Positions 25,952-64,000 of a DNA stretch of 64,000 nt are shown here, piece after piece. Below the pieces are notes generated by a model that made no database searches, had not been told where the DNA came from, and was given only the letters and a program-made list of their open reading frames with translations. Both the position numbers and the translations under genes were made by a program. The DNA is from Schmidtea polychroa. Lineage: Eukaryota. Each line of letters begins with the position of its first letter. Within the stretch, counting starts at the first letter, position 1. Where the stretch lies: the NCBI GenBank assembly GCA_044892525.1, contig CM097886.1:114514001-114578000 (forward strand), given 5' to 3'.

Positions 25952-28900
25952 CTAGACATACATCTTCCTAGGATGCACCTTTCTTTTAGATCCCACTCCT
26001 CTTTTAAATCCCACTGCTCTATCTATTATCTGCCTTGACATATAGATGCCTGCGTAGTTAGTCTTGGATACTATACTATCGCATTTGGTGGTTTCTTTCT
26101 CCTTGATAAATCTCATACCTAGGTCCGGATCGTCGGTGATTAGTGCCGTTGGTGTTTTTTGCGTTGAGAGTCTCTTTTCTCTGGGCGATGGTGGCACTGG
26201 TTTTCCATTTCTCATTCGTACTTTTCCATTTCCATCCTCGTCATCTTCGTTCTCATAAATTTCTCCCTTTACTTCATTAAACAAAGCACTTTTTAACAGC
26301 TGGAGTCGGCATTTTTGAGTGTTAGCTTCATATATTATGGTTGATACTCCCGTCTTGCATACGTTTTCCGTAGCTCTACACGCTGGGTTGGTTTTCATCT
26401 GATAATTATTGGCGTCAAATTGCGCTTCGTATTCTTTTAATTCAACCGTATAGGACTCGATTACTACCACTCCCGATATCACCTCGCCTCGGATTGTATA
26501 TGTACCTCCGTTGCACGATCCATCTGATGATTTTACTTTTCCGGATACATAAACACTTTCGGTTTTAATCATTCCGGTTTGTCCGTGTATTGTCACTCCG
26601 TTATGCATTTTCATCGCTCCGGTTCTAAAAAGCTCTTTACAGTCCTCTCTTTGTATTGGTACGATTTCTTAATCCAATCCGGGTAGTATGAGAGTCGAGT
26701 ACGAATATTGTCCACAATAATATGCGAGTACCTTTTTTGATACTACGCATTCCTTTGCTTGCGTTCTGATGAAATCTGATTCTTGATACACATGGTAGGT
26801 GACTTTTGTTTTTACTGTGTCCAATTTGTTGGGTGACGCCTGCCTACATTCTTCTATATCTCTCAATGAGTATTTATCTCTCATTACCATATTATCGCAA
26901 TCATAGATGGTGAAGCCCGTTGCTCCACTTGTGCATAGCATCCATATCATCATGGTCATCATTAGCGAATTTATTGATGCTTTTCTACTGGCTGGGTCTT
27001 TCATTGGTAATTCCCATTCAAGCTCGTTCAGCAACTTCTTCAATCTGACTTGCATTGACCTTTCCTGTTCGTTTTTTCGTGGTGCTTGTATGAGTCGTTT
27101 CCATCCTCCTGCTCGGATAATGTGTGGTTCAATAGTATTCTCTATGATTGCCACTGTCATTTCTACGTGGTTTGCAAATTGTTTATTGGGTATTTACCTC
27201 GCAGCTAATCCCATTAAATTGTACATTAAATAAGTTATTACCACTAGATGATGTTCGTCATCGTTTGCATTTGTTGTGAGCTGTTCAATCACTCTCTTCG
27301 TTTCATCCCAATCTGTTTTGGTGGTTTTGGTTTTCTCTTTGATTAGCTTTGGGATTATCCCTGATACGATGTGCCATAATTGTCTAGCTTCTACGCTGGC
27401 TACCTTTCGTTGCCACAAGCGTCTGAGTTGCGGGTTTGTTATTATTAACATATCTTTGATTAATTCTCGTATCCATTTTTCTCCTCTTTCGATCGTTGGT
27501 TGGGTTTCCTTTAGATCCCATACTATTTTGTCTAACTTTTCCAATCTGACTTGTCCTTGCTCTTGCTTTAGCTGTTCCTTAGTTTTGAACTCGGGCTTTT
27601 CTCCTTGTCTCTTAGGTCTTCCTTTTGCCCGTTTTTCCATCATTGTCCCCGCTTCTCTCGTATTCTCGTAATTCGGATTTCTTTCATTATCTGTTCTGGG
27701 CAATGAACTGTCGTTATTTCTCAGCCATTCATTCCATTCATCTATTATTTTATCGGTTTGTCCTTCTGGGGTTATTCTTGTCGATTCTTTTTGTTTCCTG
27801 AACTGTCCATCCGTTTCGGTTTCCGTAGTATCGTCGATGATTTCTTCGATGTTTAGTTTTGTTGGTTGTTGATAACTCGTTGATGGTTGGTTTGTAGTCC
27901 ACATTTCTGCTCCTGTCGGCCATCTTACTAATATCGGCGATCTTTCCCCTGGTTCATCGTTACTATCTTCTAGGATAATCTCTTCCACTCCTTCAGTTTC
28001 ATTGGATTTACTTAGTGCCTTGTTCGGGCTTGGAGTACTGAGACTACCTTTTGTTGGTCTATCATTTTTACTTTTCCTTTTTAACGGTTTTCCCAATGTT
28101 TCTGCCATGGTTAATACATTTGTCTCTTCCAACCTCATGGGTGTTATTCCAACGTCGGCATTATCGTCTAGTGATTTTCCTTGTAGTTGTAGATGGAATG
28201 GAGTTTCGTATGCTAATTTCTTTTTTAATTCCCTGATTTTGGTGGTTGGGTGTAATTCTACTTCCTCAACATTCTTATCTGGGTATTTGATTCGAATTCG
28301 ATATCTCTCTTGGGTGTCCTGTGACCATTCATGGTTACGCCACTTCCCGATGATTTGCTCCAGTTGTTCCGGGTACCATTCGTTGTATTGTCGGTATTCT
28401 TCTATAGTTTTTACTATCTCTCTCAAATAATGGATATTGTCCGATATTTTTAGAATGAAGTTGGCCAATGCTATCACTTGCCTTTTTTGGTTCTTTGTCC
28501 CCGTCTCTAAGATATCGCCTAGGTGTTTATATCTCTCTCTCTCTTCCCGATCTCTCGCCTCTTTCGCCTCTTCGCCGTCTATATCGGCGTATTCACGTTC
28601 CTTTTTTCTCATTGATTGAATATGTCTGGCTTCGTGTTCACTTTCTGACGTGACGTCTGTCTCGCTTTCTTCCTCTGATGTTTGTTCTATTACTTCTTCT
28701 TCATATTCTGGAGGTTCGTCTTCTTCCTCCTTTGGTTCTTCATCCATCTCCTCGATTTCTGTTTCTATGAGGATTCCCCTCTTAATTTCCCATACTTTAT
28801 TTTCCGCATTCCACGCCCTTTCCCATGGGGTTCGTCTGCAGGATCTGGTGCTTAACTTCGTTATTTTTCCTTGTAGTTCCTTTTCTCTTAACCATTTTTG

Positions 28901-31900
28901 GTGGATTTCAATTATTTCTACTGATTTTTGGTATAACGCTTTCATCCTATCTCGTATCTCTCTTTGATAGGTTACATCCCTCGTTCTGAATTCATCCATT
29001 GGTACTATTCGGATTACTTGCTGATCGTCCCACATACCCATTTCACTCAACGAGGTGTCGTCCTCAGCTCGTAATATTATTTTGCCGTACATCATAACTA
29101 CATCGTCTATCATGCCATCGCTACTCTGGTCTTGTACTTTTTCCGTTATTTCTTGGTTTATTTTTGATACTAATTCGTCTACCGTACTCTGATTGCGCAT
29201 TTTTACTTGTCGTTTCTCCTCATTTGGTAACCATATGATTATTTCCAACTCCTGTGGTTGAGTCTCTTTTAACCTTCCATATTTGTGGATCAAATTTACT
29301 GTTCTCCAATCGCTCATTCTGAGCAATTCAGTATCTCGTAATCGACTCATTAGTTCGTGCATAGCTGAGGCTCGCCTAGTTATGAGTAAGTCCCAGTTAT
29401 CTTCAACTTGTTCTTGAATCTGTTTGATGAGCTTATCCAGGTTTCGTCTCAAAGTACATTGTTTTATTTGTTCTAACTTCAACTTGATGTTAAAATCGTA
29501 TTCTGCCTTGGCGTCTTTAGCCCAATCGTAGATATTGGCTAGTTGTTTTTCTTTATGCAGCTTTAATATTTGTGTTTCCCCTGGCCATATCTGCGCGTCT
29601 ACCAAGTGCATATCCGGTTTGATTTGCTCTCCTTGATATTGATATAAGTACTCTTTTTTCCTCGAACTACCTAAATGTTCCCTTATCCAATCGAAAAGTT
29701 CGTCAGTGACTGTGTTTTTAATCCATATTCTTTCGAGTCCTTTACTCGTTCCGATTTTTATTACATATTGCGTGGTATCGACTTGCTTCATTTTCTCCAT
29801 ATATTTTTTTATATTTGATTTTTCCTCGTTTGGTATTAAATCTTTCTCGTTCCTTTCCAGTTTCATCACTTTTTGTACGAATCGTCTGAATGGTATTGTA
29901 TCGATGAACTCCTGGTTTCTCACTACTACTGGGAGTATCTCCGTTACTTGTTTTATTGCCTCCTCTTTCTCTTTTCTCAATTTTAATCCAATATCCTCAT
30001 CTTCACTTTCGCTGGTTATCTCGCTTTCACTTTCGCTTTCTTCGTTCTTGGTTATTTCTCTTGGTGGTTCGCTGGCTTCATTTAGTTGTAGTATTTCTCC
30101 ACCCAAGTTGCTCACGTAGTCTTCGTCTTCGTCTGATGACGCTGTATCTTTTGTCCTTTTCATCATGTTGATTCGCAAATTTCTCATCCTAGGTACTCTC
30201 CTTAGTTTCTTATTTTCGAATATCGTTGTTTCTTCAGATTCCAGTTCTTGTAGTATTTTGTGGTTTAGATGACTGGTTTGTTCCTGGTCTTTTTTGCTAT
30301 CATCCTTTACCTCTGTTTTCGTTTTATCGTGTTCTTTTTCGATTTTATCTTTTATCTTTTTCCAGAATATCTTCTGAATTCTCTGGTTTCCTTTTAATAT
30401 CGGGGTTGGATCCTCAGTTCTGATTTCCGGTGTGGTTTCCTTTACTTTTTCCGGTTCAGCCATGGGTACTACCCTTGGGTTTCTCCCGTAATTGTAACAA
30501 TATTGGCTTTTCATGTCTTTCACTAACCTCATCATATTTATTCGTAATGGCTGTTCTTGTCGTTGTTGGTTGCGTTCTTGTTTTATTCTTTCTTCCTCGG
30601 CCTGCAATCTTCGCCAATCTTGTGCATGCTGATGTACTTCATAATTGTTAAGATTTTCCGTGCTCCTCATCATGCGTATGTTCTGAGTTTGCTGGGGCAC
30701 TTGTACTTGCCTTGGTCTCATCATTTGTTGCATCATATGTTTCATTTGTGAGATTTCTTGCATTACGTTCATCTGTTTCCCTTCACTGGGGTTACTTTGT
30801 CGCTGCGGGTTCGGTGCATAATTATTATTTCGCTGCAGGGGTCGTTGTTGTTGGCTCCTTTCTCGGCAATCTCTTGAGATGTGACCTGGCTGACCACAGT
30901 TGTAACATCCCCTTGTTTGGCATATAGTTTCCGTATGCCCTCGTCTTCCACATCTATTGCAGTTTGCGTTTCGGTAACAATCGCTATCCCAATGCCCTAG
31001 TTTACCGCATGTTCGGCATTGTTTGTTATCGTTCGTATTTCGTCGATTATTAAAATTGTTCCCGCTTTTCCGGTTATTACGATCGTTATTATTCCCATTT
31101 GTTCGTCCTTGTGGTGGTTTAAAAATTTGATGCGCTCCTGGTATAAATTGATTCATTTTTGGTTCTTGATTGTTGTTATCTCCGTTATCCGTTTTCGCTA
31201 TGGCTGTCGCTATCCTCCCATCGTCTTGCATCATATTCATTTGAGCTGGTAGGTGGAGCTCACATCGTGTGGCCCAATCTATGGCTTCTTCCTACGTTTT
31301 ACACATTTTACATCCAACTGAGGCTCTTACTTCTTCTCGGCGTAATCCCTCTATGAAATAGCCGATCAGATTTTCCTCTGGTAATTTTCCGTTCATTGCT
31401 TTTTTCGCTAATCTTCGTAACTCACTAGCATATAATGTTATGGATTCGTTTACTCTTTGCTTCCTGTTTGCCAGTTCACCTAACGCCTGGTTGATTGGCT
31501 TGCTAGCTCCGAAAGTTTTCTTTAGGAATGTTTTGATATCTTCCCACTTCTCTAATTTCGTATCTCTTTCTTTAGCTTCTAGGTATACTTCTAATGCGCT
31601 ATCGCATAAAAACAACGGCATCCTTTTACTGACTGCCTCAGGTGTCCATCCACACACCGTGATATAGACTTCAAAGTTGGTTATAAACGTTGCCAACTTG
31701 TTGGCATTTCCGTTGAACGGTTCGCCTCTAAACTTTTCTTTATACTCGTCGGTTTTTACGACATTCGTCATGATTGGTTCTCTGAATTCGCCTGTTTCTT
31801 TTAAATTTTCCAGTGATGTGGTTAGGCTGTTGGCGGATAGTGCCTCTGCTGATGATGCTAAGCTGTTGGTTATGTCCGATAGGCTATCTCGGCTTCTAGC

Positions 31901-32495
31901 TCGACTGGGTGTATATCCGGTTGTAGGGTTTTCTTGGTCGAATTTCGGTATGTTGTGGGTTCTTCTTGTTCCTTGTGATACTCCTCTAGAATGGTTTATA
32001 GATCGACTTCTTCTGAGTCGTTCTAATTCGTCTCCTGAAAATAATACGTCTCCTGGCTTACTCGAGGATCTGAGATTTGGTTTCTCCGTGATTCCTTCTT
32101 ACGCTTTCTATCGTCTCTTGTGGACTTCTCTGTGATTAGCGGCTGCTGGATTGGGTGAATTCGGTTCTGACTGTGTGTCCTTCGAAGAATATTCTATACG
32201 ACTCTGCAATTAATATCCCGAGGAGCTTTATAAATCCTTGGTTGATTGCCGTTAATACAACAAGACTGAATATATCGTGAATTCGTTCGAAGTTGGAGAT
32301 ATTGTTGTCGGTGTCGTCTTCCGTTTCTGGAGTCTTCCGGTTACTGTATTCTTCTGTGCGGGTTCTGAATTGATTTATTCCTGGTTGATTACCGATTTCT
32401 TCGAATTCCTTTTGTGCAGGTTCTGGATTGGCTTGGGTGACTGGATTGGTTTGGTATCTAAAATGATAAAATGATCTCGTGTTGCATCTGCTCAC
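25952..32495 (-). pseudogene. Copy 1 polyprotein: Gag, CCHC x3, Ubl x3, Bcl-2-like, N-terminal part of Env
   Basis: ORFs starting 31771, 31240, 27160 and 26614 are one frame broken only by point stops at 31292, 27194 and 26669 (sense codons in copy 2). Zinc knuckles at 30866-31018. Homology to copy 2 stops at ~26010 (after IDRAVG), where the rest of env and all of pol are deleted. The N-terminus probably starts near 32495 with a frameshift. Confidence 0.88.
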
Positions 32496-33186
32496 ACGAC
32501 TTCATCATTCTTTCTGCAACATTCAAACACAAACACCGTTTAGGTTTTTGTTTGTGCTTCCCCTATTTTCTTATACCATTATTCCGCGGGTTATAATTTC
32601 CCATTATCCCGTATTTTTCGTCGATTTTAAACTATCTATATGGGGTAGTAACAATTATCTATAGAGTCGCAATAATTATCTATCGTTATCAATTATAATA
32701 GAAATAGGTCGTTGTCGGTCACTGCTTATTACCCCCCTTTATTTTCCTAATCCTTTGCGCCATGGTCGCTATTTTACCTATCTTTCTCTCACTCGGTTCT
32801 ACCCTGGAACCAAAAATTGCGTTTTCCCGGTTTAAACACACAAAAAAAATCTGTAGAGTTTCTCTCTCTACTTCACTGGGATCCCTTTATTCAGTTAATT
32901 ATTCTCTTAATTATTTATTCTTGCTTACTTTTTATTTTCGTATCCTATTGATTCACTTTCCTATTTCTCTTTCTCACTAAAGTTTATTAACATCTACCAC
33001 GAGCTCGTTTATCCCTTTCCAATTTTTCAGTTTAACTTTTATCTGTTTTCCTCAATCTTCTTTCTTAGCTAGGCTTAATGTTATATCTTGTTATGGTTTA
33101 GCTTACTAATCAATTTTAATTTTATTCGGTTGTCTCACTGTTTATCTCTGATGGCCATCTCACTAGGTTAGCTCTATTGGCTACTT

Positions 33187-33280
33187 CACTATCGTCCGTA
33201 TTATTTCACGGCCTCACTATCGTCCGTATTATTTCACGGCCTCACTATCGTCCGTATTATTTCACGGCCTCACTATCGTC
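33187..33280. repeat. 28-bp tandem repeat (3.4 units) in the 5' leader
   Basis: CACTATCGTCCGTATTATTTCACGGCCT x3 plus a partial unit. Confidence 0.95.
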
Positions 33281-33759
33281 ATGTTGTTACATTAGTTGAT
33301 TGGTCGACCTACTTTCTTCCGCTTGGGAGTGCTTCCCCTTTCCCCCTTTGCTCAAAACGCATGACGATCGCGATGATCCGTTTCTACATTGGTATGGTGA
33401 TCAGTCACACCGTAGAAACTTCTCATCATGTGCGATGGTACCCCGCCCTACGCTTCTTACTTGGGTTGATCGGTTATCCCCTCCCAATTGGTTTCTTGTA
33501 ATAGAACGTACCGCCCGAAGGTGGCTCGGTTTGTACCCTTACAGCCTATATTGGGACTAATTCCATATTACTTTACTTTTCTTTTCGCTTGATCCCAAAA
33601 ATTAAAAATAGATATAAAAGCAATAAACTATTCAGTTTGTAACAAAGATTTATTCACCATAAAATAAAAGTTAAAACTTTAATAATATTCACACAAGAAT
33701 TACATTTGATCGTCAATATCAGTTCGATGTTCGTAGTTGTTGTGGTATTTTTATTCATT

Positions 33760-34245
33760 TCAATCGCCATAATAAACCATATGGGTCTCCTTTATCTCGT
33801 GTCTACATATAGTACATCGATTTAGATTGTTCACGCACTCTTCACAGTGACTGAGGTGTCCGCATGGCAAGAACAGTACTCGTATAGGACGAAGTTTACA
33901 AGATAGACAAGTTCGGATTACGGCGACCGTCTCTTGTATCTTTTGCTCGATGGCGTCTGATATGGTGTTTAACCGGTCTTTTATTCGCTGATATTTTAAA
34001 TTCAAGGCTGGATGGTTCAATCTTTCTTGGTACCACTGGTATATTATTTCGAGATTTATTTTTTCGTCTGGGCGATTTAAACCTATGGCCAGTAACATGT
34101 GGGTAGGTACAACTAGTACTTGTTCTATGGTTTGTAGTTGTATGCTCCTAATTCTCTCTCTTTTTTGCGTAAGGGTCTGTAGGGGATCGCTGTCTATATC
34201 GATGAAGTTGGTTAATCGTTGGATCTGTTCGGTGAATTCGGCCAT
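33760..34245 (-). CDS. IAP/MDM2-type C-terminal RING protein (161 aa), copy 1
   Basis: CLSCKLRPIRVLFLPCGHLSHCEECVNNLNRCTICRHEIKETHMVYYGD. Intact, with an orthologue at 52301-52786. Confidence 0.88.
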   Translation of the reverse strand: MAEFTEQIQRLTNFIDIDSDPLQTLTQKRERIRSIQLQTIEQVLVVPTHMLLAIGLNRPDEKINLEIIYQWYQERLNHPALNLKYQRIKDRLNTISDAIEQKIQETVAVIRTCLSCKLRPIRVLFLPCGHLSHCEECVNNLNRCTICRHEIKETHMVYYGD

Positions 34246-34536
34246 GTCTATTAGGAAAGAAAATATGTTATTAATATACTACCAAGTGATGGTGATTTTA
34301 TTAAAAATTTAAGTTGTTATTGGTTATTCAATTTCGCCTTCTTTTAGATTTACTTTATTTGTTTTTAGTTTTATTATTATCTAAACCCTTATTTTTATTT
34401 ACCCCATTTATGCAATAATTCGATAGATTCTCATCGATTCGCATTCGTCAATCAATCAAACTCAGTACATCTCGGTGAATTCCGCACCAATCACTAGAAA
34501 TTCAATTGTTAGGCCTTTCCATTTATGCGTAGATAT

Positions 34537-34554
34537 ATCCCGGCTGAGCCCCCA
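34537..34554 (-). promoter_or_regulatory. Primer binding site, tRNA-Pro type
   Basis: TGGGGGCTCAGCCGGGAT lies 7 nt after the LTR end. It matches the canonical tRNA-Pro PBS TGGGGGCTCGTCCGGGAT at 16 of 18 positions and is identical in copy 2. Confidence 0.88.
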
Positions 34555-35029
34555 AAAATTATGCTGGGGTACCACTCGATTGAATCTGTTACTTCTTTTC
34601 GCTAAGAGATGATTGTCCACCTCGTATGTTATCCGTTTCGCCCGTTCAACTCGCAGTGGGACCCCACATAACTTGTCCTCCAACATAGTGCCCGTGAATT
34701 GCTCCACGTTGGTACTGCACTATGCAGGCGAGACGCCAGCAAGCAGGTGAGCTTCTGCCTTAAAACTACTCCTTGCTGAGGCCTCGACTTTTCACTTACG
34801 ACTGCCGATAGAAGAGCTTACGTCCGTTCTCAGCACACAACCGCCTAGCGAAATTTCGTTGAGCACAGATTGGCATTTGTTTACTGGATCTCTAAAGTTT
34901 TTAGCTCGACGTCCTTAATCATAATCAGACTAATCTTGAAAGGGAAAGAAAACAAAATAAACAGTAAGATTTATTGATCACCATATTATAACACAGAACT
35001 TAACCATGCACATTTCAATGTTTTTAATA

Positions 35030-47969: not shown

Positions 47970-48300
47970 TGTTGGGCTGAATCGAAGGGTAGCTGGGAAA
48001 TTAGGTCGAATTTAACTAAAGTAAAAATAAGAAATAAAATAAATAGATTGACGAATAAAATAGAATAGAACATAAGAAAAACAATAATTAGAAATAAGAA
48101 TTAAAACAAAAAAATATATAAAAATAAGAAAAATTAAAATAGGACAATAGAATGACAGAAAATAACGCAAAATATAATAAATAATAAGGAAATTAAGGAA
48201 AATAAATAAAAACATAATTTTAATAAAGAAAATAAGAAGAAATAACTCTAAAACAAGGAAAATAAATTAAATTAATAAAATTAAGCGGTACTCAATTCTG

Positions 48301-48388
48301 ATTGGTCCGCGCAAACAAAAAATTAATATATAAGCAGGCATTAAAATCATAATAATTACAGTTAATCTAACCACCTCAATAGGTAAGT
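48301..48388 (+). promoter_or_regulatory. LTR promoter and splice donor
   Basis: ATTGG at 48301-48305, TATATAA at 48327-48333 and AG|GTAAGT at 48383. Confidence 0.7.
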
Positions 48389-50662
48389 AAAGTTTAAAAT
48401 AATCACAGTTAATCTAACCACCTCAATAGATCCATTCTACGACGAAACCGCAATTAAACAATCAATCCACAGCAACTCACGAGGACTATTCCGGAATCCA
48501 AGAAATTTCAGCTGAATCTAGATAATTTCGAACATTTATTACTTCGACACAGTACCCCTTTTCGACTCAGCCTATACCTCTATTAAACACTCGGTAAGGA
48601 TCTTTTGATTTCATAATTTGAATTTTAAAGTAATAGTTATGCATATGATTTAATTATAATTTTAATTTAAAGAACTTGTTTTCTTTTCGTTTGATTTCGA
48701 ATACTTGGTGTAATTTAACGATTTAGTATTTAACAATAAATGATTTGCTATGAATGATTGATTTCTAGGAATTATTGACTTTTATGAACTGTTTTAATGA
48801 GTTATTATTTAATGCCATTCAAATTTTCGAGAAACGTGGCGTTGATATACTCTAGTGTCATGGTGTGAGGTGCCTTCGGGAGCTCCACCGGTGGGCCTAG
48901 GGTATTTCAATCACGCAGCTGATTCGGGCCGTAATGTGGGGGCTTCCTCACGGGTCCGTCGCTGAAGGTGCGACTAAATCCTATAGGAAAATGTTGCCAG
49001 AAAATTGGTAGTCGTATAGCGATGGAAAATAGAGATGTAGGAAGAAACGTTCAGAGAGTTTTTATGTATTCGCGCAGTGATTGAGGGTGTCACACTATCG
49101 TCTCAAGATATCGTTTCTACTAAGCCCAAATTTCCTCTATCGCTCTAAAGCTCTATGTAGGTTGCTCATCGAGAGTCGTTCAAATGCTATAGGTGACATA
49201 TCTTCGATGCTCGTATGTTTCACTCGAAATTTATACCTACTATGTTTTATGGCCTTCCGTGTTATTATTTTCCTCGTCTACGTGTTCTCTCAAAGATGTA
49301 GCTGCAGGGGATTACAGAAAATAAGTAGTCTCGGATGAGCGTTAGAATTCCATGAACAAGTTGTCTCGCATAAAATTTTGAATTACGTAAAACGGGTTAC
49401 TTCAACTATTTTTGAATTGTATAAAATGATTTACTTCAATTGATTTTAGAATTATATAAAGGGATTAACTTCCACAAATTTTTCTAATTACATAAACCGG
49501 TTAGTGCCAAATAATCTCAAGAGTAAAACGAAATCAAATCGAGTCAAAAAATATATTTTTTTTTTACAAACCAATCTAACATGATAATCCTTACCTAGTA
49601 AATATAAATTACCCGTGTTTCATGGAGTTGATAATCCGGCGAGGATAGGTAGGAAATCTCCAAAATATCGGGAACGGATCAATAAACCGCATTTGAGGAG
49701 TTGAGAAGTTCCCCCTGGGGGGCAAATTATATCCAACTCTTGCGATACCGAGAATCATAATTTTTCCAGCATTTCCGTGAGAATTAGTATGACATCATCA
49801 TGAGCAAGGAAATGTGAGCATCTGTGCAGTGGGTTGATCGAGATAGTAGCCAGAGAACATGCCAGCATGTAAACAGTTGAGGGCACCAGTTAGTCATTAG
49901 GAGTGGAATTAAGTATGAGAAATAAAAACTTGCATACGTCACCCGTTTTCAGACACACTACAGTAGCTAATCACGGTGTGTAGATTCACACCGACTTGTA
50001 CTCATAACAAACCAGACCGGACGTGTCAGCTGGAATTTTTGGGTTATCAAATTAAATCACTCGCAGTCATTAGATTCCCACTGGTCGGAACTAATAGCCA
50101 ACTGTCAGACTGATTTTGTCTACTTAGTAGGATTAATTTAGTTATTATCTCATGTTGAATAATTTGTCGCCTATCATAAATAAATAATTAAAAATTTTTT
50201 TTTAATGTCTTCCCGTTCATCATAAATGAACTAATTAAGAATAATTTATGGATTTCTATTCACCCTAAATAATTAATCTAAAATTAATCGACCTACGTAC
50301 AGGATACATTCATCGAAACGATTTGTTAGGAAAAGTCGGCAATGTAATTCAACTCTCTTCAAACGTTAATTACTAACTTCAAGCAATTTAGATAACCGTA
50401 GTTTCCTCGACCTAGAATTCCTCTCACCAGTAGTAATACCTCTCCTTACTTGTGCAAAATCGTGCTAGACTGATTTATTTTCTTATAATTAATGACCCAA
50501 AGGGAACGAGGACCCATAGCGCAGTTGAATTTCTTTGGCTGATACACCCATTCTTGTCTATGAAACCAACTATGATCAGTAAAATATAAATGTGACCAGA
50601 CGACGACCTTCTAATTGATTTGATTTGTTGTTCATTTCCATCTTTTCTTGCAGTCACCCAAG

Positions 50663-51406
50663 ATGTTACCCAATTCCAAGACCATTCTCAGACCTTGTTT
50701 CTCTTGTTCAGACAAGAATTCAATCATCAAGGATCTGCAGGCCCAAATCGGAAAGTACAAGAGAAAAATAGACGAGTTAGAGGGGACATGGTTTAGTCCT
50801 ACCCAGATGAAAGAGGCTCAGAAGAAGCTGCACCGCAGCGAGCACTGTCGAGATGCGCTAATTTCCGAAAGTCGGGCGCAGAGAAGCCTAATAAAGGAGC
50901 AGTCGGAGGCGCTGCACAAGTTATACGTCCAAGCAGCAACCACTAGGAGAATCGCGAAGATCCCAATTAATGAAGCCAGTAATCTTTTTCCAGCGCACCA
51001 CGAGATCTCGGGCGGGCCTTCATCTCCACTTGGGAAGTCCTGCCATGGGTGCGTGGAGACCGAGCTCTCTCCCAGTGGTCCAGACGTTGTATTCACCGGA
51101 ACTAATAAAGTGCAGCCAAACACCGCATCGTCCTCAATCGTGCAAACCCCAACAGCTTCAAAACCTAAACGTCGGCAACTGTCGCGCGCCGAACGAAAAC
51201 GAAAGCAACGAGAGCGGGCTTCCATCAAACGGATTCTACCATCAACCGTCACCCCAGTCGACGGCAACAGCAATCCAATAGTAGTCGATCTAACGACCGG
51301 AATCTCAGGGCGAGTCATCTCCGCCGCCGGGGTAACATGGGAAGAAAACGCCGCCGAATTCTTTGATTTAAACGAGTTACTCGCCGACTCGGAGTGGGAA
51401 AAATGA
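50663..51406 (+). CDS. LTR-encoded 247-aa protein, copy 2
   Basis: Intact ORF after the acceptor tcttttcttgcag (50653), with AATAAA at 51543-51548. Homologous to 35327-36076. Confidence 0.82.
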   Translation: MLPNSKTILRPCFSCSDKNSIIKDLQAQIGKYKRKIDELEGTWFSPTQMKEAQKKLHRSEHCRDALISESRAQRSLIKEQSEALHKLYVQAATTRRIAKIPINEASNLFPAHHEISGGPSSPLGKSCHGCVETELSPSGPDVVFTGTNKVQPNTASSSIVQTPTASKPKRRQLSRAERKRKQRERASIKRILPSTVTPVDGNSNPIVVDLTTGISGRVISAAGVTWEENAAEFFDLNELLADSEWEK

Positions 51407-51974
51407 GAATTGCTCCGTAAACTGGCCTCATCTTCTAGAGATACCTGGACATCTTCTGACATCATTGTTTACCCTTGTGTTTTCCCTATTCTTAGGAATT
51501 TTGGTATATAAGTGTTCAATGTACTTGTATAATAATTCTGACAATAAACCATTCTCGTCTATATATGTGTTTTTGTTTATCTTAAAATAGTCGATCTGAA
51601 ATTGGTGAATAACATTGAGAGTCGTAGAAAATGAGGAGCATTAGTCAGTTGGCAACCCCAGCTAGGAACCTTGCGATGGGGTGATGGAATGATTAGACGT
51701 AAGTCCTTCTATCGGCAGTCAGGGTTGGGAAGTCGACGCCTCAGTAAGGAGTAGTCCGAAGGAGCTGGCTCACCTGCTTACTGGCGTCTCGCCGGCATAG
51801 CACAGTTCCAACGTGAAGCAATTCACGGGTGCTATGTTGGAATGTAGGTTATGTGCGGGTCCTGCTCGGCGATGACAAAACGAAGGACGAGCGAAATCGA
51901 TGTGGGCATTCATCCTCTAGACTGAAAGCTGCACTAAAAGGGGTCATCCGAGTAGCTACCCGCAACATAATTTT

Positions 51975-51992
51975 TGGGGGCTCAGCCGGGAT
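51975..51992 (+). promoter_or_regulatory. Primer binding site, tRNA-Pro type
   Basis: TGGGGGCTCAGCCGGGAT. Confidence 0.88.
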
Positions 51993-52300
51993 TTAGATTG
52001 AAATTTCCATTGACTAGTGCGAACTTGACTGGGATTTATTATTGAAATTTTGTCGAATAGTGTGAATTCACCGGGATTAGTGATTTTAATTGACTGGCGA
52101 ATGCAAATTGACTAATGCTTATCGAATCTTATTATAAAATCACGATTAGAAAATAATAAAATTAAAGATATAAATAAAGTAACTTTAATAATGGAGAAAT
52201 AAGATAAAAGTAAAATAAAGTATAACGATTTAAAAGGAAAATGTTTGATGAAACAACCACTAATTAGTTATGTATGACTAAAACATTTTTTTTAATAGAC

Positions 52301-52786: not shown

Positions 52787-53427
52787 ATAGTTAAAGATAC
52801 AATAACATCTATGAACATTGAATTAATACGGGCGATTGAATGAGAATAAGTGTAATTGATGTGTGGAATTTTATTAAAGCTTCAATTTTTATTTTTATGA
52901 CGAATAAAATTTTGTTACGAACTGAGTAATTTATGGCTTTTAATTCTATTTTATAACTTTGTTTTCGAGTCAAGCGAAAGGAAAACTAAACTAACGTGGA
53001 ATTAGTCCCAATATAGGCTGTAAGGGTACAAACCGAGCCACCTTCGGGCGGTACGTTCTATCATACGAAAAAACCAATTGGGAGGGGATAACCGATCAAC
53101 CCAAGTAAGAAGCGTAGGGCGGGGTACCATCGCATATGATGAGAAGTTTCTACGACATGACTGATCACCATGCCAATGTAGAAATGGATCATCGCGATCG
53201 TCGTGCGTTTTGAGCAAGGGGGGAAAGGGGAAACACTCTCAAGGGTAAAGATCAAGTCGACAAATTAAAAGTAGAGACAGAGAAAATGATAATTCAGGGT
53301 AAAAGAGGAAAAGAGAAGTAGAAGCATGCAGAGTGGGGAATATTAAAGCCGAGCTGTTGAATAGTCCAGCCGGTCAAGGAAAATGAAAACTGAGCTGTGA
53401 AAAGTCCAGCCAGTTCGGAGATATTAA

Positions 53428-53649
53428 GATCGAGTTGTTGAATAGTCCAACCGATCAGAAGGAAGAAGATTGAGCTGTTGAATAGTGCCAGCCAGTCGTA
53501 AGATCGAGTTGTTGAATAGTCCAACCGATCAGAAGGAAGAAGATTGAGCTGTTGAATAGTGCCAGCCAGTCGTAAGATCGAGTTGTTGAATAGTCCAACC
53601 GATCAGAAGGAAGAAGATTGAGCTGTTGAATAGTGCCAGCCAGTCGTAA
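53428..53649. repeat. 74-bp tandem repeat x3 (each a dimer of ~37-bp subunits) in the 5' leader
   Basis: Units start at 53428, 53502 and 53576. Degenerate subunits extend upstream to ~53350. Confidence 0.93.
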
Positions 53650-53974: not shown

Positions 53975-56900
53975 CGGGCGAACTAGCAAATAGGAAACAA
54001 AGAGCGAACGAATCGATAACATTATATGCCAGTGAATTACGAAGATTAGCGAAGAAAGCAATGAATGGGAAATTACTCGAGGAAAATCTGATCGGCTATT
54101 TCATAGAGGGATTACGCCGAGAGGATGTAAGAGCCTCAGTAGGTTGTCAAATGTGCAAAACGTTAGAGGAAGCCATAGACTGGGCTACAAGATGCGAGCT
54201 CCACCTTCCAGCTCAAATGAATATTATGCAAGAGGATGGGAGGATAGCGACAGCAATAGCGAAAGCGGATAACGGAGATAACAACAATCAGGAACCGAAA
54301 ATGAATCAATTTATACCAGGAGCGCATCAAATTTTCAAACCACCACAAGGACGATCAAATGGGAATAATGGTAATCGTAACAACTTGAATAATGAGAACA
54401 ATTTTAATAATCGACGAAATATGAACGATAACAAGCAGTGCCGAACATGTGGTAAACCAGGACACTGGGACAGAGATTGTTATAGAAACGCAAATTGTAA
54501 TCGTTGCGGACGGCGTGGACATACGGAAAATAGATGCCAGTTGAAAGGTTGTTTTAACTGTGGTCAGCCAGGTCACATCTCCAGAGACTGCCGAGAAAGG
54601 GGCCAACCACAACGACCACCACAACGAAATACTAATTACATGTCGAATCCGCAACGACAAAGTAACCCTAGTGAAGGAAAACAAATGAACGTTATGCAGG
54701 AAATCTCACAAATGAAACAGATGATGCAACAAATGATGAGACCAAGGCAAGAACCAGCACCACAACAAACCCAGAATATACGTATGATGAGGAGTACCGA
54801 AAATCTCAATAGTTATGAAGTACATCAACATGTACAAGAATGGCAAAGACTACAGGCCGAGGAAGAGAGGATAAAACAAGAACGCAACCAACAACGACAA
54901 GAACAACCATTGCGAATAAATATGATGAAGTTAGTAAAAGACATGAAAAGCCAGTACTGCTACAATTACGGGAAAAACCCAAGGGTAGTACCCATGACTG
55001 AACCAGAGAAGGTAAAAGAAACAACAACGGAAATGAAAACCGAGAATTCAACCACGATCTTAAAAGGGAACCAGAGAATTCAGAAAATATTCTGGAAAAA
55101 GATAAAAGATAAAATCGAAAAAGAACATAATAAAGCGAAAACCGAGACAGAAGATGAAAATAACAAGAGCAAGGAACAAGCCAGTCAACCAAACCGCCAA
55201 ATGTTACAAGAACTGGAATCTGAGGAAACAACGATATTCAAAAATAAAAAACTAAAGAGAGTACCTAGGATGAGAAATTTGCGAATCAACATGATGAAAA
55301 GGACGAAAGGTACGTCGTCCTCAGACGAAGACTATGTGAGCAGTTTGGGTGGAGAAATACTACAGCTAAATGAAATAAGCGAACCTCCAAAAGGGGAAAT
55401 CGAAGAAGAAGAAGGCGAAAGCGAGATAACCAGCGGAAGTGAAGACGAGGATATAGAAATAAAGTTGAGAAAAGAGAGGGAGGAAGCGATAAAACAAGTA
55501 GCTGAAATACTCCCAGTAGTAGTGAGGAACCAAGAGTTCATCGATATAATACCATTCAGACGATTCGTGCAAAAAGTGATGAAATTGGAAAGAAACGAGA
55601 AAGATTTAATACCAAACGAGAAAAAATCAATTATAAAAAAATATATGGAAAAAATGAAGCAGGCCGATACCACGCGGTATGTAATAAAAATCGGAACGAG
55701 TATAGGACTTGAAAGAATGTGGATTAAAAATACAGTCACCGACGAACTTTTCGATTGGATACGAGAACATTTGGGAAGTTCGAGAAAGAAAGAATATCTG
55801 TATCAATACCAAGGAGAACAGATCAAACCAGATATGCACTTAGTGGATGCACTAATATGGCCAGGAGAAACGCAAATACTGAAGTTGCACAAAGAAAAAC
55901 AACCAGCTAACCTGTACGATTGGGCTAAAGATGCCAAGGCGGAATATGATTTTAATATCAAATTGAAATTAGAACAAATAAAGCAATGTACTCTGAGACG
56001 AAACCTGGACAAGCTGATCAAACAAATTCAAGAACAAGTGGAAGACAACTGGGATTTACTCATCACCAGACGAGCCCCAGCCATGTACTAACTAATGAGC
56101 CGGTTGCGAGATACAGAATTGCTCCGAATGAGTGATTGGAGAACCATAAATTTGATTCCCAAATATGGAAGGTTAAAAGAAACCCAGCCGCAGAGGTTGG
56201 AAATAACCATATGGTTACCGAACGAAGAGAAACGACGAATAAAAATAAGCAATCAGAGTACAGTGGATGATTTGGTATCAAAGATAAACCAAGAGATAAC
56301 GGAAAAGGTACGTAGCGAAAGTAGTGATGGTATGGTGGATGATGTAGTCATGATGTACGATAAAATAATATTACGAGCGGAAGACGACACCTCGTTGAGC
56401 GAAATGGGTATGTGAGACGATCATCAGATAATCAGGATAGTACCAATGGATGAATTTCGAACAAGAGATGTAACGTATCAAAAAGAAATACGAGACCGGA
56501 TGAAAACGTTATATCAAAAATCTACAGAAATAATTGAAATTCACCAACGATGGTTAAAAGAAAAGGAACTACAAGGAAAAATCACGAAACTAAGCACCAG
56601 ATCCTGCAGACGAACCCCATGGGAAAGAGTGTGGAATACAGAAAATAAGGAATGGGAAATCCGGAAAGGAATCTTCGTAGAAACAGACATTGGGGAGACA
56701 GAAAGTGAATCGGAGGAAGAAGAAGAGGAACCCCCAGAATATGAAGAGGAAGCAAGGAGACAGATCTCAGATGATGAAAGCGAGACGGACGTCACGTCAG
56801 AAAGCGAAAATGAAGCGAGACATATTCATGCAATGCGGAAAAAGGAACGTGAATATGCCGATATGGACGGCGAGGAAGCGACAGAAGCAAGAGAACGAGA

Positions 56901-58528
56901 AGAGAAAGAAAGATATAAACACTTAGGCGATATCTTACAATGGGAGCGAAAAATCAAAAACGTCAGGTAGTAGCATTGGCTAATATCATCTTAAAGACAT
57001 CAGAAAATATCCACAATCTGAGAGAAATGGCGAAAGTAATAGAGGAATACCGGCAATATAATGAATGGTATCCAGAACAGCTAGAACAAATTATTCGAAA
57101 ATGGAGAAATCAAGAGTGGGCACAAGACACCCAGGAGAGGTATCACATCCGAATCAAGTATCCGGACAAGAGCATTGAAGAACTAGAAGTGCATCCAACA
57201 ACGAAAATTAGAGAATTAAAAAAGAAATTAGCATATGAAACTCCATTCCATCTGCAACTATTCGGAAAATCACTAGACGATAATGTAGACGTCGGAATAA
57301 CACCCATGAGATTAGAAGAGACTAATGTGTTAACAATGGCGGAAACGTTGGGAAAACCGTTGAAAAGGAAAAGCAAAATTAATAAACCAACAAAAGGTAG
57401 TTTGAGTACTCCAAGTCCAAACAAAGCCCCAAGTAAATCTAATGAAACTGAAGAAGTTGAAGAGATTATCCTCGAAGATAGTGGCGACGAACCAGGAGAA
57501 AGATCACCGCTATTAGTGAGATGGCCAACAGGAGCCGAAATATGGACCAACAACCAACCATCAACAAGTTATCAACAACCAACGAAACTGAACACCAAGG
57601 AAATCGTCGACAATACTACGGAAACCGAAACGGATGAACAATTCCAGAAGCAAAGAGAACCAACAAAAATAACACCGGAAGGTCAAACTGATAAAATAAT
57701 AGATGAGTGGAATGAGTGGCTGAGAAATAACGATAGCTCATTACCCAGAACGGATAACGAAAGAAATCCGAATTACGAAAATACCAGAGAAGCTGGAACG
57801 ATGATGGAAAAACGGGCAAAAGGAAGACCTAAGAAACAAGGAGAGAAATCTGAGTTCAAAACCAAGGAACAAGTAAAACAAGAACAAGGACAAGTTCGAT
57901 TGGAAAAGTTAGATAAAATAGTATGGGATCTAAAAGAAGCTCAACCAACGATCGAAAGAGGAGAAAAATGGATACGAGAATTGATCAAAGATATGTTAAT
58001 AATAACAAATCCACAACTTAGACGCTTGTGGCAACGGAAAGTAGCCAGTGTAGAAGCTAGACAATTATGGCACATCGTATCGGGGATAATCCCAAAGCTA
58101 ATCAAAGAAAAAACGAAAACTACCAAAACGGATTGGGATGAAACCAAGAGAGTGATTGTACAGCTCACGACAAATGCAAATGATGACGAACATCATCTAG
58201 TGGTAATCACTTATTTGATGTATAATTTGATGGGATTAGCTGCAAGGAAAATACCTAATAAACAGTTCGCAAATCACGTAGAAATGACCGTGTCAATCAT
58301 AGAAAACACTATTGAACCCCATATTATCCGTGCCGGAGGATGGAAAAGACTTATACAAACGCCACGAAAAAATGAGCAAGAAAGGTCGATGCAAGTTAGA
58401 TTGAAAAAGCTGTTAAATGAACTAGAATGGGAACTACCGATGAAAGATCCAGCAAGCAGAAAAGCATCAATAAATTCGTTAATGATGACTATGATGATAT
58501 GGATGTTGTGCACAAGTGGAGCAACGGG
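53975..58528 (+). pseudogene. Copy 2 Gag, CCHC x3, Ubl x3, Bcl-2-like region (Gag N-terminus deleted)
   Basis: Zinc knuckles at 54439-54591. Stops at 56089 and 56413 and a frameshift at ~56940. A deletion of roughly 1.3 kb relative to copy 1 lies at ~53975. Confidence 0.88.
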
Positions 58529-60345
58529 TTTTACCATCTACGATTGTGATAATATGATAATGAGAGATAAATACTCATTGAGAGATATAGAAGAATGCAG
58601 ACAAGCATCACCCAACAAATTGGACATAGTAAAAACAAAAGTTACCTACCATGTATACCAAGAATCAGATTTCATCAGAACGCAAGCAAGAGAATGCGTT
58701 GTATCAAAAAAGGTACTCGCGTATTATTGCGGGCAATATTCGTATTCAACTCTCATACTACCCGGTCTAGATAAAGAAATCGTATCAATACAACGAGAAG
58801 ACTGTAAAGAGCTATTTAGAACCGGAGCGCTAAAAATGCATAACGGAGTGACGATACACGGACAAACTGGAATGATTAAAACCGAAAGTGTTTACGTATC
58901 CGGAAAAGTAAAGTCATCAGATGGGTCATGTAACGGAGGTACGTATACGATCCGAGGCGAGGTAATATCGGGAGTAGTAGTGATCGAGTCCTATACGGTT
59001 GAATTAAAAGAATATGAAGCGCAATTTGACGCAAATAATTACCAAATGAAGACCAACCCGGCATGTAGGGCTACAGAAAACGTATGCAGGACAGGAGTGT
59101 CAACTATAATCTATGAAGCTAACACGCAAAAATGCCGACTCCAACTGTTAAAAAGTGCTTTGTTCAATGAAGTAAAAGGAGAAATTTATGAAAACGAAAA
59201 CGACGAAGATGGAAACGAAAGAGTGAGAATGCGAAATGGAAAACCAATGCCACCATCTCCCAGAGAAAAAAGACTCTCGACGCAGAAAACACCAACAGCA
59301 TTAATTACCGACGATCCAGATCTAGGTATGAGATTTATCAAAGAGAAAGAAACCACCAAATGCGACAGTATAGTATATAAAACCAATTACGCTGGTATCT
59401 ATATGTCAAGACAAATAATCGACAGAGCAGTGGGAAAGATAGCAACGGAGGACGTAAAACTATACTTATATGCAAATAATAAAATGGATTTTTTTATTTC
59501 ATCGTGGACAAACGACCCTACAAAAAGTATATTACGATCTGATACAAAACGATTGTTCATTGAATAAAGAAATACTGAAAACAAAGCTAGCTATTGCGAT
59601 AACGCACCCAGATAACACGATGCCATCACTCCCATTACCAGACGGACATTTTGGTAGAATGGTAGGAAAAGTGATGTACACATACCAGTGTACCAAGACG
59701 TATGCACGAATGCCAGAAAAATCCATACTACCCGAAAAGAGATGTGCAAATGAATTAGAAATCCGCTATAAAGGACAAAATCGATTCGTTTCTACCCAAA
59801 TCTCTTTAACTGTTCTAATGCATACGGACCATTGTATGAAAGACCCGATGGGAAATGGATGATGTTACCGGGAAAAACCATATCCGAGGAGCCCAAGAAA
59901 TTTGGATTAATAGAACTCGCCACAGAGCTGGATTTCAAACCTATAGACGTGTCAAACGGTGGTATGTATTCCCCAGAAGATTTAGAAACAGCTCGGCTTA
60001 ACGTATTATTCCCAGCAAGACGAGAATCTATTTTGTCCAATATGGTAACAATAACTGGGGGAACGAATTACCAAATAGGCCCAAACTATGAACTACTGCT
60101 GTCACCAGACCATTTCCAACAAGCAACCTCAAATATGATGAAAGCAATGTGGGGAAGATTCTTAGTTTTTGGACAAATGATGGCCGGAATATTGGGGATC
60201 ATACTCATAATTCAGATCGTCAGAGTAATACTAACACAAATGTTAGCTTGTTTTGATATATACAAGCGGGAAAAGAAAGTTAACTGGAAAATGATAGTAG
60301 GCTTTCTACCATTTTTAGCTAAAACCATGGTATTACATGGTCACT
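58480..60345 (+). pseudogene. env: Envelope glycoprotein, class III (chuvirus G / herpes gB-like) type; two frameshifts
   Basis: Signal-like LMMTMMIWMLCTSGATG followed by FTIYDC...YSL..IEEC...YYCG.YSY...EDC...DGSC.G, a Cys pattern typical of chuvirus-like glycoproteins. TM segment [25 protein letters not shown] at ~60158-60245. Frameshifts at ~59490 and ~59800. Confidence 0.75.
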
Positions 60346-60839
60346 CAAAAGACATTCATCGGATAAAGCGATTGATCAAAATACTAACAAAGATTAAAGG
60401 AACCGACGAAGAAGTAGGCAGACGATTCCGGAAAGTAATGTACGATGAAGCAACAAGACGACAATTGAAAAAGAATAAGCCAAAATTTTTGGACCGATTC
60501 AGAAGTCAATCATCTAACAGCGATAGTGACGACGATGATAACGGGAACAATAAATGTCTATATCCAAACAGAAACCCAAACGAAAAACCAATGGAAACAG
60601 CACCGTATTGGGAAAAGGAAAAGACAAACACCTGGATCGCCAACGGAAGCTATATACCACCGGATATCGTGGGACCACAAGCCGCTTTGACCATGACACA
60701 GAATATGTATCCGCAATTACCGAGTCAACCCGGGATGCATTATATGCCAACACGACGTACCAAAAGTGTAGATCAAGCAGATGACGTAAGAACAATAGCA
60801 GAGATGAGTTTACCTGGAGGTCCAGCAGTAACAGTTATG

Positions 60840-63800
60840 ATTCAAATCAATGGTAAAGAAACCAATGCTATGATAGACACCGGAGCTAATGTATCAGCAA
60901 TAGCGATTAATCAAATTCCCAGTAAGCACTGGAAGGATATCGAATCAACAACAATCCACATCATAGCATGTAGTAAAGAAACAGTAGATGTGGTCGGAAG
61001 ATGGTGGACTACATTGAGATACCAGGACAACGAAATTGAAACGTATTTGGCAGTAATACCAAAACTTAGCGTACCAGGCATAATCGGAACGGATTTGATG
61101 CCAGAATTATTAAAAGAAGTGGTAATTGACTTAACAACCATGTGCCTAAAAGACAGAACAGGCAGAATATGCAAAATGAATGCCATAATCCGATGTCCAG
61201 AGAAAATTGTAGTACCAGCAAAATCGCAGATGATTTGTCAAATAAAAGTGGATACGGGTATGGAAGGAGAAGTTGTCTTCGAACCAAGTAAATCATTTGA
61301 AAAGCGACGAGAGTTACCCCTCGCCAGAGAAATAATAACAATAAACCCAGAAGGAGTGATACCGATCAACATCACAAATTTTGAAGAGGAAGACAAAATC
61401 ATCTATGAGAATGAAAAATTGGGAAGATTGACCCCAATGATGGACATAGAATTACCGAAAGTGACCAACGAGATGATCAAAGACGATGAATTATGGACAA
61501 TAGATAGTATGTTGTTGACGAATGATGAAAAGAAAAAATTGCACCGATTATTAGTAGAATATAAGGATATATTCGCCATCTCGGACCTAGATTTGGGTAC
61601 ATGTGATGTTACCCTGCATGCGATACCATTAATAGATGAAACTCCAATTGCGTTAAGACCATATAAACTAGCGGAAATGCAAAAAGGAATAGCTGAAGCA
61701 GAAGTACAAAAGATGTTAGACGCAAAAGTGATCGAACCAAGTTGCTCACCTTGGCAATTCCCAGTGGTCATGGTGAAAAAGAAAGATGGCACCCAACGAT
61801 TCTGTATCGATTATCGAAAGTTGAACGCAGTAACCAAGAGAGATACCTACCCATTGCCAATGAAATGTTACTCATGTTGCAAGGGGCAGCATATTTTACT
61901 TCTTTAGATTTAAAAAGTGGATACTGGCAAATTAAAGTCAAAGATGAGGACAAAGAGAAAACGGCTTTCACGTTGGGACGAGATCTATATCAGTTCAGAA
62001 AAATGCCATTCGGACTGACCAACGCACCAGCATCGTTTCAAAGGTGTATGAACTTTGTCACTCATGGAATCAAACAATGTATGGTATATATTGATGATTT
62101 GTTAATCTATTCAGCGACATTTGAACAACATCTGGAGGATATCCGAAATGTATTTATTCGATTACGACAATGGAAACTCAAGCTCAAACCGTCAAAATGC
62201 GACTGGTCAAAGGAAAAGGTCACGTTTTTGGGACACATAGTGTCAGCTAAAGGAAAGGAGCCAGATCCAAGAAACATTGAGAAAATAAAAACATGTCCAG
62301 CACCGAAAACTGTCACCCAAGTTCAGGAATTTCTAGGATTATGCGGATACTATCGCAAATTTATCAAAAATTATGCAGGAATTGCAAAACCAATCCAGGA
62401 ATTAGTAAAGAAAGACATTTCGTTCATTTGGGGGAAGGAACAACAAGAGGCGTTTGAAACGCTGAGAGACAAACTAATCGAAGCACCTATCCTCGTACAC
62501 CCAGATTTCAAGAAACCATTTCTATTAGCAACGGATGCAAGCGGGTACGCGGCAGGCGCGATTCTGGGACAATTAGACGACGAAGGTAAAGAAAGAGTAA
62601 TTGGATATTACAGTCGAACATTCAAAAAGCACGAGAAGAACTATTCGGTAACAGAACGAGAAGCATTGGCTATAATACAAGCAATCAAACATTTTCGATA
62701 TTTGTTATGGGGACATGAGATATGTATAACCACAGATCATCAACCATTAGTGTGGCTAGGGCAACATAAAGAAGCGTCCAGTAGACTAATGAGATGGGCA
62801 ATGCAGCTACAAGAGTATTCACCGTTCATAAAATTCAAAGCGGGAAGAGCGAATGCAAACGCCGACTGTATGTCAAGGTTTATTTTTCCAGATTTGGTAG
62901 ATCCAGAAATGCAACGTATATGCCTGATGGTAGCAGAAGACCTAGATTTCTGCCAATTACGAAAAGACCAACAAGAAGACGCAGAACTGAAACAAATTAT
63001 CGATTATGTAAAAACAGGAAAGACGGAGGTATATGCGAAAGACCAAAAATTAAAAGAACATATGGATAAACACCGACACCGATATATCATAGAGAAAGAT
63101 TGGTTGCTGATAATGGATGGGGAAAAACGATTAATGTGTATACCGGAAAACCGACGGAAAGAGTTACTAACGCAATACCACGATGGGAGATTGGGAGGAC
63201 ATATGTCATCAAAAAAGACGTTAGCAAGAATGAAACAAAAATATTTCTGGCCTACCCTAACGGAAGACGTAACCGAATGGGTGAAAAACTGCATAACCTG
63301 TGCAACAAGGAAAAACACTGGATCGAAATGGAAAGCACCTTTGACGCCAATGCCGGTACCAATAGAGCCGATGACAATGATATCAATGGATGTAGTTGGT
63401 CCATTGCCAGAATCGGATAAAGGAAACGTTTATATTTTAGTGATTACAGACTTTCTCACAAAATTTCCAGAAGCATTCGCGATGCCAGACCAAAAAGCTA
63501 AAACAATCGCAAAAATCTTGGTCGAAGAGATATGTTGCCGTTACGGGACACCGAAGCAAATCTTGACTGATCAAGGAACTAATTTTATGAGTGAAATAAT
63601 GAGTGAGGTAACCAATTACTTCAAAATCGCAAAATTGAGAACATCACCGTATCATCCTCAAACCAATGGGATGACGGAAAGATTTAATGGAACACTTATA
63701 CAAATGTTATCAAACTACGTCGACCGTCACCAACGAGATTGGGACGAATATATAAACCTATGTCTTATGGCGTACAGAATGTCGATTCACGCATCAACGA

Positions 63801-64000
63801 AAATGAGCCCATTCAAATTAATGTACGGAAGAGAATGTAACATGCCAATGGACCTGGAATACCAACCACCGATATCGCAATACATGGAGATAGATGATTA
63901 TGTTACGAAATTCAAGGAAAGAATGCAGGAGATTTGGGAAACTGCGGGATTAAACATCAAGTTCTACCAGGAAAGTTATAAAGATTTACACGATCGAAAG
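60840..64000 (+). CDS. pol: Pol: aspartic protease, RT, RNase H, integrase (one frameshift at ~61860; then open to the window end)
   Basis: MIDTGA (D at 60876); [14 protein letters not shown] and YIDD (62087-62098); TDAS (62534); HHCC (63179-63301); integrase D63389, D63569 and E63677 with D-35-E spacing. Gypsy domain order. Confidence 0.97.

Follow-up and report, generated by a model that had tools for sequence, protein, structure and literature searches.

A probable Burro-type family of giant Ty3/gypsy elements in Schmidtea polychroa with Gag, a class III-like Env and Pol in a single open frame

The analysed region, referred to here as the window, is a 64,000-nucleotide stretch of the Schmidtea polychroa genome (assembly GCA_044892525.1, contig CM097886.1, positions 114,514,001 to 114,578,000). 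It contains the 5′ part of a retroelement copy of 28,551 bp (the window copy), whose LTR pair is 99.675% identical over 3,999 columns, and, on the opposite strand, an older relative (copy 1; Table 1). The paired TG...CA LTRs, the target-site duplication and the tRNA primer site, which matches the 3′ end of tRNA-Pro genes from the same genome, are Ty3/gypsy features, as is the Pol order PR-RT-RH-IN, found together with Pfam matches to Retrotrans_gag, RT_RNaseH and Integrase_H2C2. Both copy 1 (E 1.2e-11) and a sister copy match Retrotrans_gag, and the integrase region carries a motif that we take to be the GPY motif. A BEL/Pao element with a chuvirus glycoprotein was considered and rejected: no Pfam match to Peptidase_A17 or a BEL-type Gag was found, and env precedes PR here, while in BEL/Pao elements with such a glycoprotein env follows pol.

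Table 1. Features of the window copy and of copy 1 (window positions unless another coordinate system is given)
Feature	Position	Strand	Comment
5′ LTR	47970..51967	+	3,998 bp, TG...CA ends; target duplication GTAT (4 bp)
3′ LTR, outside the window	G000:C2:114586524-114590520		partner of the 47970..51967 LTR
260 aa ORF within the 5′ LTR	50624..51406	+	coiled-coil-like; Rootletin match weak, below cut-off
Primer-binding site	51975..51994	+	complements 3′ end of host tRNA-Pro(TGG); 7 bases past the LTR
Upstream accessory ORF, RING finger, 172 aa	52268..52786	+	zf-C3HC4_3 E 1.2e-11
Leader tandem repeat, 74-bp unit	53344..53649	+	
Gag, 5′ end missing in window copy	53977..54591	+	three CCHC knuckles at 54439-54591
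Ubiquitin-like region, three likely units	55678..57335	+	units about 55678-55895, 56197-56440, 57141-57335; 2 stops and 1 frameshift inside
Bcl-2-like domain, weak	58125..58343	+	Pfam Bcl-2, below cut-off
Predicted internal signal peptide	58458..58529	+	basic and hydrophobic, with small -3/-1 residues
Env ectodomain, class III (chuvirus G / gB-like)	58530..60176	+	about 550 aa with 15 Cys and a single R-X-K-R site; window copy carries two frameshifts
Predicted transmembrane helix	60177..60233	+	basic residues and another, weaker hydrophobic stretch (60291-60335) lie downstream
Aspartic protease, same frame as Env TM	60834..61109	+	RVP E 4e-10; Asp at 60876
Candidate dUTPase-like insert between PR and RT	61200..61450	+	position agrees with available passages of PMC6431247; no Pfam match
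Reverse transcriptase and RNase H	61640..62818	+	one frameshift near 61865
Integrase	63140..64000	+	ORF continues past the window: ankyrin repeats, second signal-ectodomain-TM unit
Copy 1, older relative	21394..34824	-	internal deletion at about 26010, mid-env to ORF end

The original prediction, made from the window alone, was that Env sits between Gag and Pol and shares their frame. The two stop-to-stop ORFs concerned (56919-59567 and 59772-61907) do share a frame, and sister copies show a single ORF. The first, described as Gag running into Env (56940-59567), passes through the signal-like stretch into the PF24664 match as proposed, but its upstream part is a ubiquitin-like/Bcl-2-like accessory linker rather than Gag proper; the zinc knuckles of the window copy sit in a different frame from this ORF. 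The second (59832-61907) leads, as described, from the Env TM in frame into the protease and the start of RT, covering the C-terminal half of PF24664, the TM and RVP. Alignment to an open sister copy, the ruler, shows that the window copy has stops at 56089 and 56413 and frameshifts near 56950, 59490, 59790 and 61865, and that it has lost about 630 bases from the 5′ end of gag, including the gag start. Copy 1, 86% identical to the window copy across gag-env (5.5 kb), had been said to hold one frame; Gag to Env are indeed in frame, but with 3 in-frame stops, and about 7 kb is lost after mid-env. It retains the last TM and the ORFs for a TRAF-like protein (23184-24610) and a coiled-coil protein (21935-23017).

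When the same genome was searched at the DNA level with an env-to-protease query, 608 candidates emerged, of which 40 were scored; 37 of the 40 cover the whole query. The 20 best non-self matches were taken as a sample of sister copies, which is therefore biased towards close relatives. Five of these 20 hold one open frame of 4,730-4,732 codons (about 4,617 aa when counted from the first Met), well above the polyprotein of more than 3500 aa first proposed, and intact copies thus bear out the single ORF. A frame that stays open for 4,700 codons is far longer than chance would produce. Six of the 20 are open from Gag to RT, and 15 are broken over the full frame. The Bcl-2-like and env-start landmarks fall within one ORF in 17/20 sister copies, and the TM and PR in 18/20. 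In the open copies the frame runs Gag, ubiquitin-like, Bcl-2-like, signal, Env, TM, PR, RT, RH, IN and ankyrins (Ank_2 E 5e-20 for the repeats after IN in an open copy), with about 230 aa between the TM and the protease Asp. Outside the main frame lie the upstream RING protein and, downstream, a 478 aa TRAF-like RING-MATH protein (MATH_2 E 5e-26) and coiled-coil ORFs. The total length of a sister copy is 30.7 kb, versus 28.6 kb for the window copy with its lost gag start. LTR pairs are 99.4-99.95% alike in all ten copies compared, and copying is therefore recent; 4-bp target duplications are readable in at least 9 of the 10.

Conserved stops or frameshifts that would isolate env were sought across 21 copies aligned to the open ruler copy, and no break was found at a fixed gene border. 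Lesions present in more than one copy comprise two that are common to two sister copies and one shift 5′ of the first Met in two copies; the rest are private. Since the breaks are private or confined to two sisters, they do not speak against the single frame. The signal and protease are free of shared stops or shifts among the same 21 copies. What looked like shared frameshifts near codons 597-603, 657-659 and 695-696 proved to be paired gaps that net in frame and are present in an open copy too. Programmed frameshifting or read-through between the genes was considered and is unneeded because 5/20 copies are fully open, in agreement with the original remark that no separate gag-pol frameshift signal is evident. 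Slippery-like heptamers are scattered at 26-33 per 10 kb in 6/6 copies, a density given without a control.

Purifying selection was estimated from pairwise NG86 dN/dS between eight diverged copies and one ruler copy (dS 0.16-0.94; the pairs share the ruler and are non-independent, and the values are uncorrected for transitions). The lowest to highest values per region were 0.01-0.02 for RT-RH, 0.01-0.05 for the TM and tail (6/6 copies), 0.02-0.04 for the N-terminal half of Env (8/8) and 0.03-0.06 for its C-terminal half (6/6), 0.02-0.06 for the protease region, 0.03-0.11 for the Bcl-2-like domain, 0.06-0.13 for the linkers and 0.06-0.11 for the last membrane unit (4/4). Every part of the frame is thus clearly read as protein, with purifying selection throughout, and because this extends to the inter-domain linkers, these are translated as well.

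The arrangement extends to other families. Searches of the genome via an outside relative and PF24664 identified three more, whose Env proteins are 36-38% identical to the present one and 70-75% among themselves. Knuckles, Env and PR lie in one frame in 7/8 sister-family stretches, which were chosen for long frames; the eighth is internally deleted. Each sister family has a signal-like stretch ahead of the same A/T-x-D-C Env start. Two proteins from outside assemblies, 39-40% identical, likewise fuse Env to protease.

The ectodomain was predicted to be chuvirus-G/gB-like, and both Pfam and three fold searches led by class III proteins (on a low-confidence model) agree. The Env of a sister copy matches PF24664 (Monjiviricetes fusion glycoprotein) above cut-off (E 1.3e-71); in the window copy the match is split into an N-half (58476-59090, E 1.6e-26) and a C-half (59805-60266, E 2.8e-19). 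The feature of HSV/gB-type errantiviruses, a gB-like ectodomain between a predicted signal and a TM, is accordingly present by the PF24664 match and by fold matches on the low-confidence model. This model, built with AlphaFold2 from a 6-row alignment, has a mean pLDDT of 44, with values close to 70 or higher confined to about residues 50-165. Against the PDB, all 41 rows listed by Foldseek are class III fusogens (herpes gB, thogotovirus GP, baculovirus GP64), with a best E of 8e-6 and a TM-score of about 0.14 for this poor model; TM-scores for the Env model span 0.08-0.29. Foldseek viral matches are led by chuvirus-, qinvirus- and xinmovirus-like G, the top one being a chuvirus-like G (E 4.8e-18), at 15-17% identity. 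In VIA-align the top 11 rows are class III fusogens that cover model residues 46-201, including the fusion domain; the best Z of 7.1 (rmsd 4.5, 135 aligned) is middling and within the range that the tool calls common. The Pfam match and the fold searches on this low-confidence model support Env as a class III fusogen with a predicted role in fusion. It shares the PF24664 match and the top fold matches with chuvirus/xinmovirus G and herpesvirus gB, but at 15-17% identity, and it differs from them in lying inside a retroelement polyprotein. No stand-alone Env relative was found by sequence at E 0.001 among near-length proteins, and none in viral contigs or the PDB.

The accessory domains ahead of Env are more weakly marked. 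The limits of the ubiquitin-like units in the window copy were placed by eye from the translation; the third unit matches Pfam ubiquitin at E 0.24 and PDB ubiquitin variants at E 0.35-0.44, both weak, and the units of sister families reach E 1e-4 and 2.7e-5, just below cut-off. Pfam Bcl-2 matches at E 0.008-0.009, below cut-off, in 3/3 families scanned. BIR and dUTPase domains gave no Pfam match in this family (the published Burro calls used HHpred-level sensitivity).

The window copy is very probably a defective giant Ty3/gypsy element of the Burro type. Its intact sisters carry Gag, a gB/chuvirus-like Env and Pol in a single frame, and the resulting protein would probably be threaded through the ER membrane and cleaved by host signal peptidase and its own protease. 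Hydropathy and charge predict a plausible topology of signal in, TM out and Pol in the cytosol. The signal stretch of this family has an 11-residue hydropathy of 2.05 and falls below the 19-residue hydropathy cut-off; those of the three sister families are stronger (2.4-2.8 over 15 residues). In all four families the Env TM is followed by a second hydrophobic stretch, which would place Pol in the lumen were it to span the membrane. The flanking basic residues argue against this; as Pro and Lys lie inside it and basic residues on both sides, it was taken as lying on the membrane. Gag and its ubiquitin-like/Bcl-2-like cargo would be made in the cytosol, and the internal signal would direct the Env ectodomain to the lumen and then be cleaved off. 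The Env TM is predicted to halt transfer, so that PR-RT-RH-IN-ankyrin would lie in the cytosol again, still joined to the Env tail. Past the ankyrins, a second signal would send a second ectodomain to the lumen, anchored by the last TM; this further predicted crossing after the integrase was missed in the original prediction. By analogy with retroelement and flavivirus biology, signal peptidase would free the start of Env and PR the cytosolic parts. Tethering to the Env tail may carry Pol to Env-bearing membranes, where particles would bud. Gag, Env and Pol would be produced one-to-one unless splicing or turnover altered the ratio.

In an alternative reading, the frame is uninterrupted at the DNA level, yet little of the full polyprotein is made: Gag, Env or Pol would come mostly from spliced or shorter messages, as in copia-type elements, and flavivirus-like processing would not be the main route. 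One-to-one output of Gag and Pol is unusual among retroelements, and several Met codons ahead of the signal could start Env. The linkers, however, are under purifying selection (dN/dS 0.06-0.13) and hence translated, and four divergent families hold the frame open over both borders, so we regard this route as unlikely. GT..AG ends were found at 0 of the 15 joints listed among 57 in read contigs, a type of data that cannot show level, strand or splicing.

The second membrane unit begins, in an open copy, with a signal-like stretch near codon 4400 and runs for about 250 aa to a last TM near codon 4668. A membrane unit ends the frame in all four families, although in one only the TM is within the open stretch, and among the three sister families it aligns at 37-38%. 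A model of the sister-family unit (pLDDT 56) is all-beta; tandem fibronectin-III arrays predominate among its Foldseek matches (best E 7e-7, TM-score about 0.2), and VIA gave generic Ig-like sandwiches (best Z 8.3, rmsd 2.9, 76 aligned). The unit of the present family is shorter: hhalign against the sister families gave a probability of 0.05, and Pfam none above cut-off. The model thus suggests a fibronectin-III-like unit in the sister families, to which that of this family has no detectable relation. The last unit is not named in the available text of PMC6431247, figures aside, nor was it found by literature search.

Together, the two membrane proteins could be the entry machine of infectious retrovirus-like particles made from one polyprotein, with a class III fusogen in the middle and, at the end, a rapidly changing surface protein that selects the target cell, and with Pol riding in on the Env tail. 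This remains a speculative picture to which we attach a low probability. In the proposed mechanism Env would allow particles to pass between host cells; it could instead be kept for an intracellular job, as an assembly anchor at the ER membrane or a block to entry by related elements, with no particle moving between cells. Copying inside stem cells needs no envelope, and the available passages of PMC6431247 and PMC13524379 report no Burro particle or transfer. Against this, the whole ectodomain with its cysteines is constrained like the protease, and in the modelled fold the class III match is kept over the fusion domain, which leaves a purely intracellular Env improbable in our judgement.

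A chance origin of the Gag-Env-Pol frame, either through in-frame insertion of part of an RNA-virus glycoprotein into one copy or as an artefact of assembly, is practically inconceivable and is ruled out by copy counts and selection: chuvirus-like glycoprotein genes are common as endogenous inserts and the window copy itself is broken, but 37/40 scored matches cover the full length of the env-PR query, the layout recurs in four families, purifying selection is strong, and the layout has been published for other species.

Burro / GYPSM1 elements of planarians are said to have been described in Jurka 2007 and Grohme 2018, and Sacco et al. 2022 reportedly found nematode endogenous retroviruses with a continuous gag-env-pro-pol frame. 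The novelty implied by the original prediction does not stand. In its available passages, PMC6431247 (2019) presents planarian Burro elements as the first with an in-frame env between gag and pol, gives Burro / GYPSM1 totals around or over 30 kb with internal regions up to 25 kb, and ties Burro Env to gypsy Env and mononegavirus glycoproteins. Those of PMC13524379 report gB-type elements in the order GAG-ENV-POL from three phyla (Nematoda, Bryozoa and Platyhelminthes), with six such elements in S. mediterranea, and cite non-canonical nematode endogenous retroviruses with Env before pol, as here; they describe ORF order, not one polyprotein. Burro is merely mentioned in the passages available from PMC11410931. 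Because the layout has been in print since 2019, the present elements are a new family of known layout and not a new concept. What is added is the count of open copies, the purifying selection on Env and the Env-to-protease linker, and the evidence for a class III fold; the questions raised are how a membrane-threaded polyprotein sets the amounts of Gag, Env and Pol, and what role the terminal second membrane protein has.

Among the published Env proteins compared, the nearest is that of Smed_errantivirus_5, an element with the same Gag-Env-Pol order and a gB-type Env, with 71/129 residues identical, counted by eye, over a gap-free Env stretch (available part of PMC13524379). At about 55% identity it is a distinct family; it is listed there with 1 copy and no tRNA type, whereas at least 37 env-PR copies and a tRNA-Pro site are found here. 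By the description in the available text of PMC6431247, Burro is alike in its length of about 30 kb and in one ORF of 4,600-5,100 aa that holds a three-CCHC Gag and Env in frame before PR, RT, RH and IN; ankyrin, MATH/TRAF and coiled-coil cargo is common to both. The ubiquitin/SUMO-like and BCL2-like domains of Burro have candidate counterparts at the corresponding positions ahead of Env in three families, each match falling below the curated cut-off. The Burro ORF is given as about 4,900-5,100 aa, so that the present one (about 4,617 aa, in elements of 28.6-30.7 kb) is slightly shorter. In contrast to Burro, the present family has an upstream RING ORF without a BIR match, and its Env fold searches point to class III. 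The MATH domain lies here in the downstream TRAF-like ORF, while the available passages of PMC6431247 place it in ORF1 in the Burro elements of S. mediterranea and upstream in those of D. tigrina.

The long Gag-Env-Pol-ankyrin frame of the Burro-type element terminates in a second signal-ectodomain-TM unit, with signal and TM segments assigned by prediction, and this unit is under purifying selection (see table). In the sister families the unit is fibronectin-III-like, and one of these families has a PPxY-like motif at its very end. The related Env-protease fusion proteins from outside assemblies, P0003 and P0004, apparently contain two or three protease-like motifs downstream of Env and appear to terminate upstream of RT.

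In the window copy (47970-64000), whose LTR pair differs at only ∼13 of 4,000 sites, six lesions are disabling and part of gag is deleted. This combination may reflect a defective template copied in trans, or an assembly error.

The TRAF-like gene adjoining the 5' LTR probably derives from another Burro-like element. The LTR-like segments, near-identical to one another, are ∼70% related to the element's LTR, a pattern that suggests nested relatives.

Features in the window, in the stretches beyond it (L051, L052) and elsewhere in the source genome (G000, contig C1)
Feature	Location	Strand	Details
Second signal-ectodomain-TM unit	L052:5916-6489		beyond window
Second signal-ectodomain-TM unit	L051:5640-6630		beyond window
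Second signal-ectodomain-TM unit, copy 1	25200-26000	-	
TRAF-like RING/zf-TRAF/MATH gene	45546-46961	-	two pieces; further such gene
LTR-like segments	3838-9787 and 34561-37857		97.7-99.6% identity to one another, up to 2,036 bp
Non-LTR-type element	10744-17431	+	ORFs and Pfam domains
tRNA-Pro(TGG) tandem array	G000:C1:130901009-130952345		period 475 bp

In the non-LTR-type element, a 943-aa ORF without a Pfam match precedes a frame, broken up by stops, that encodes both a Ulp1-like protease (Peptidase_C48) and an RT accompanied by zf-RVT. Several further ORFs of 195-412 aa, at 17783-21272 (+) and 7217-9472 (-), gave nothing above the Pfam cut-off.

The tRNA-Pro(TGG) pattern has 1,555 matches genome-wide, and the tRNA of the tandem array is the one matched by the element's primer site.
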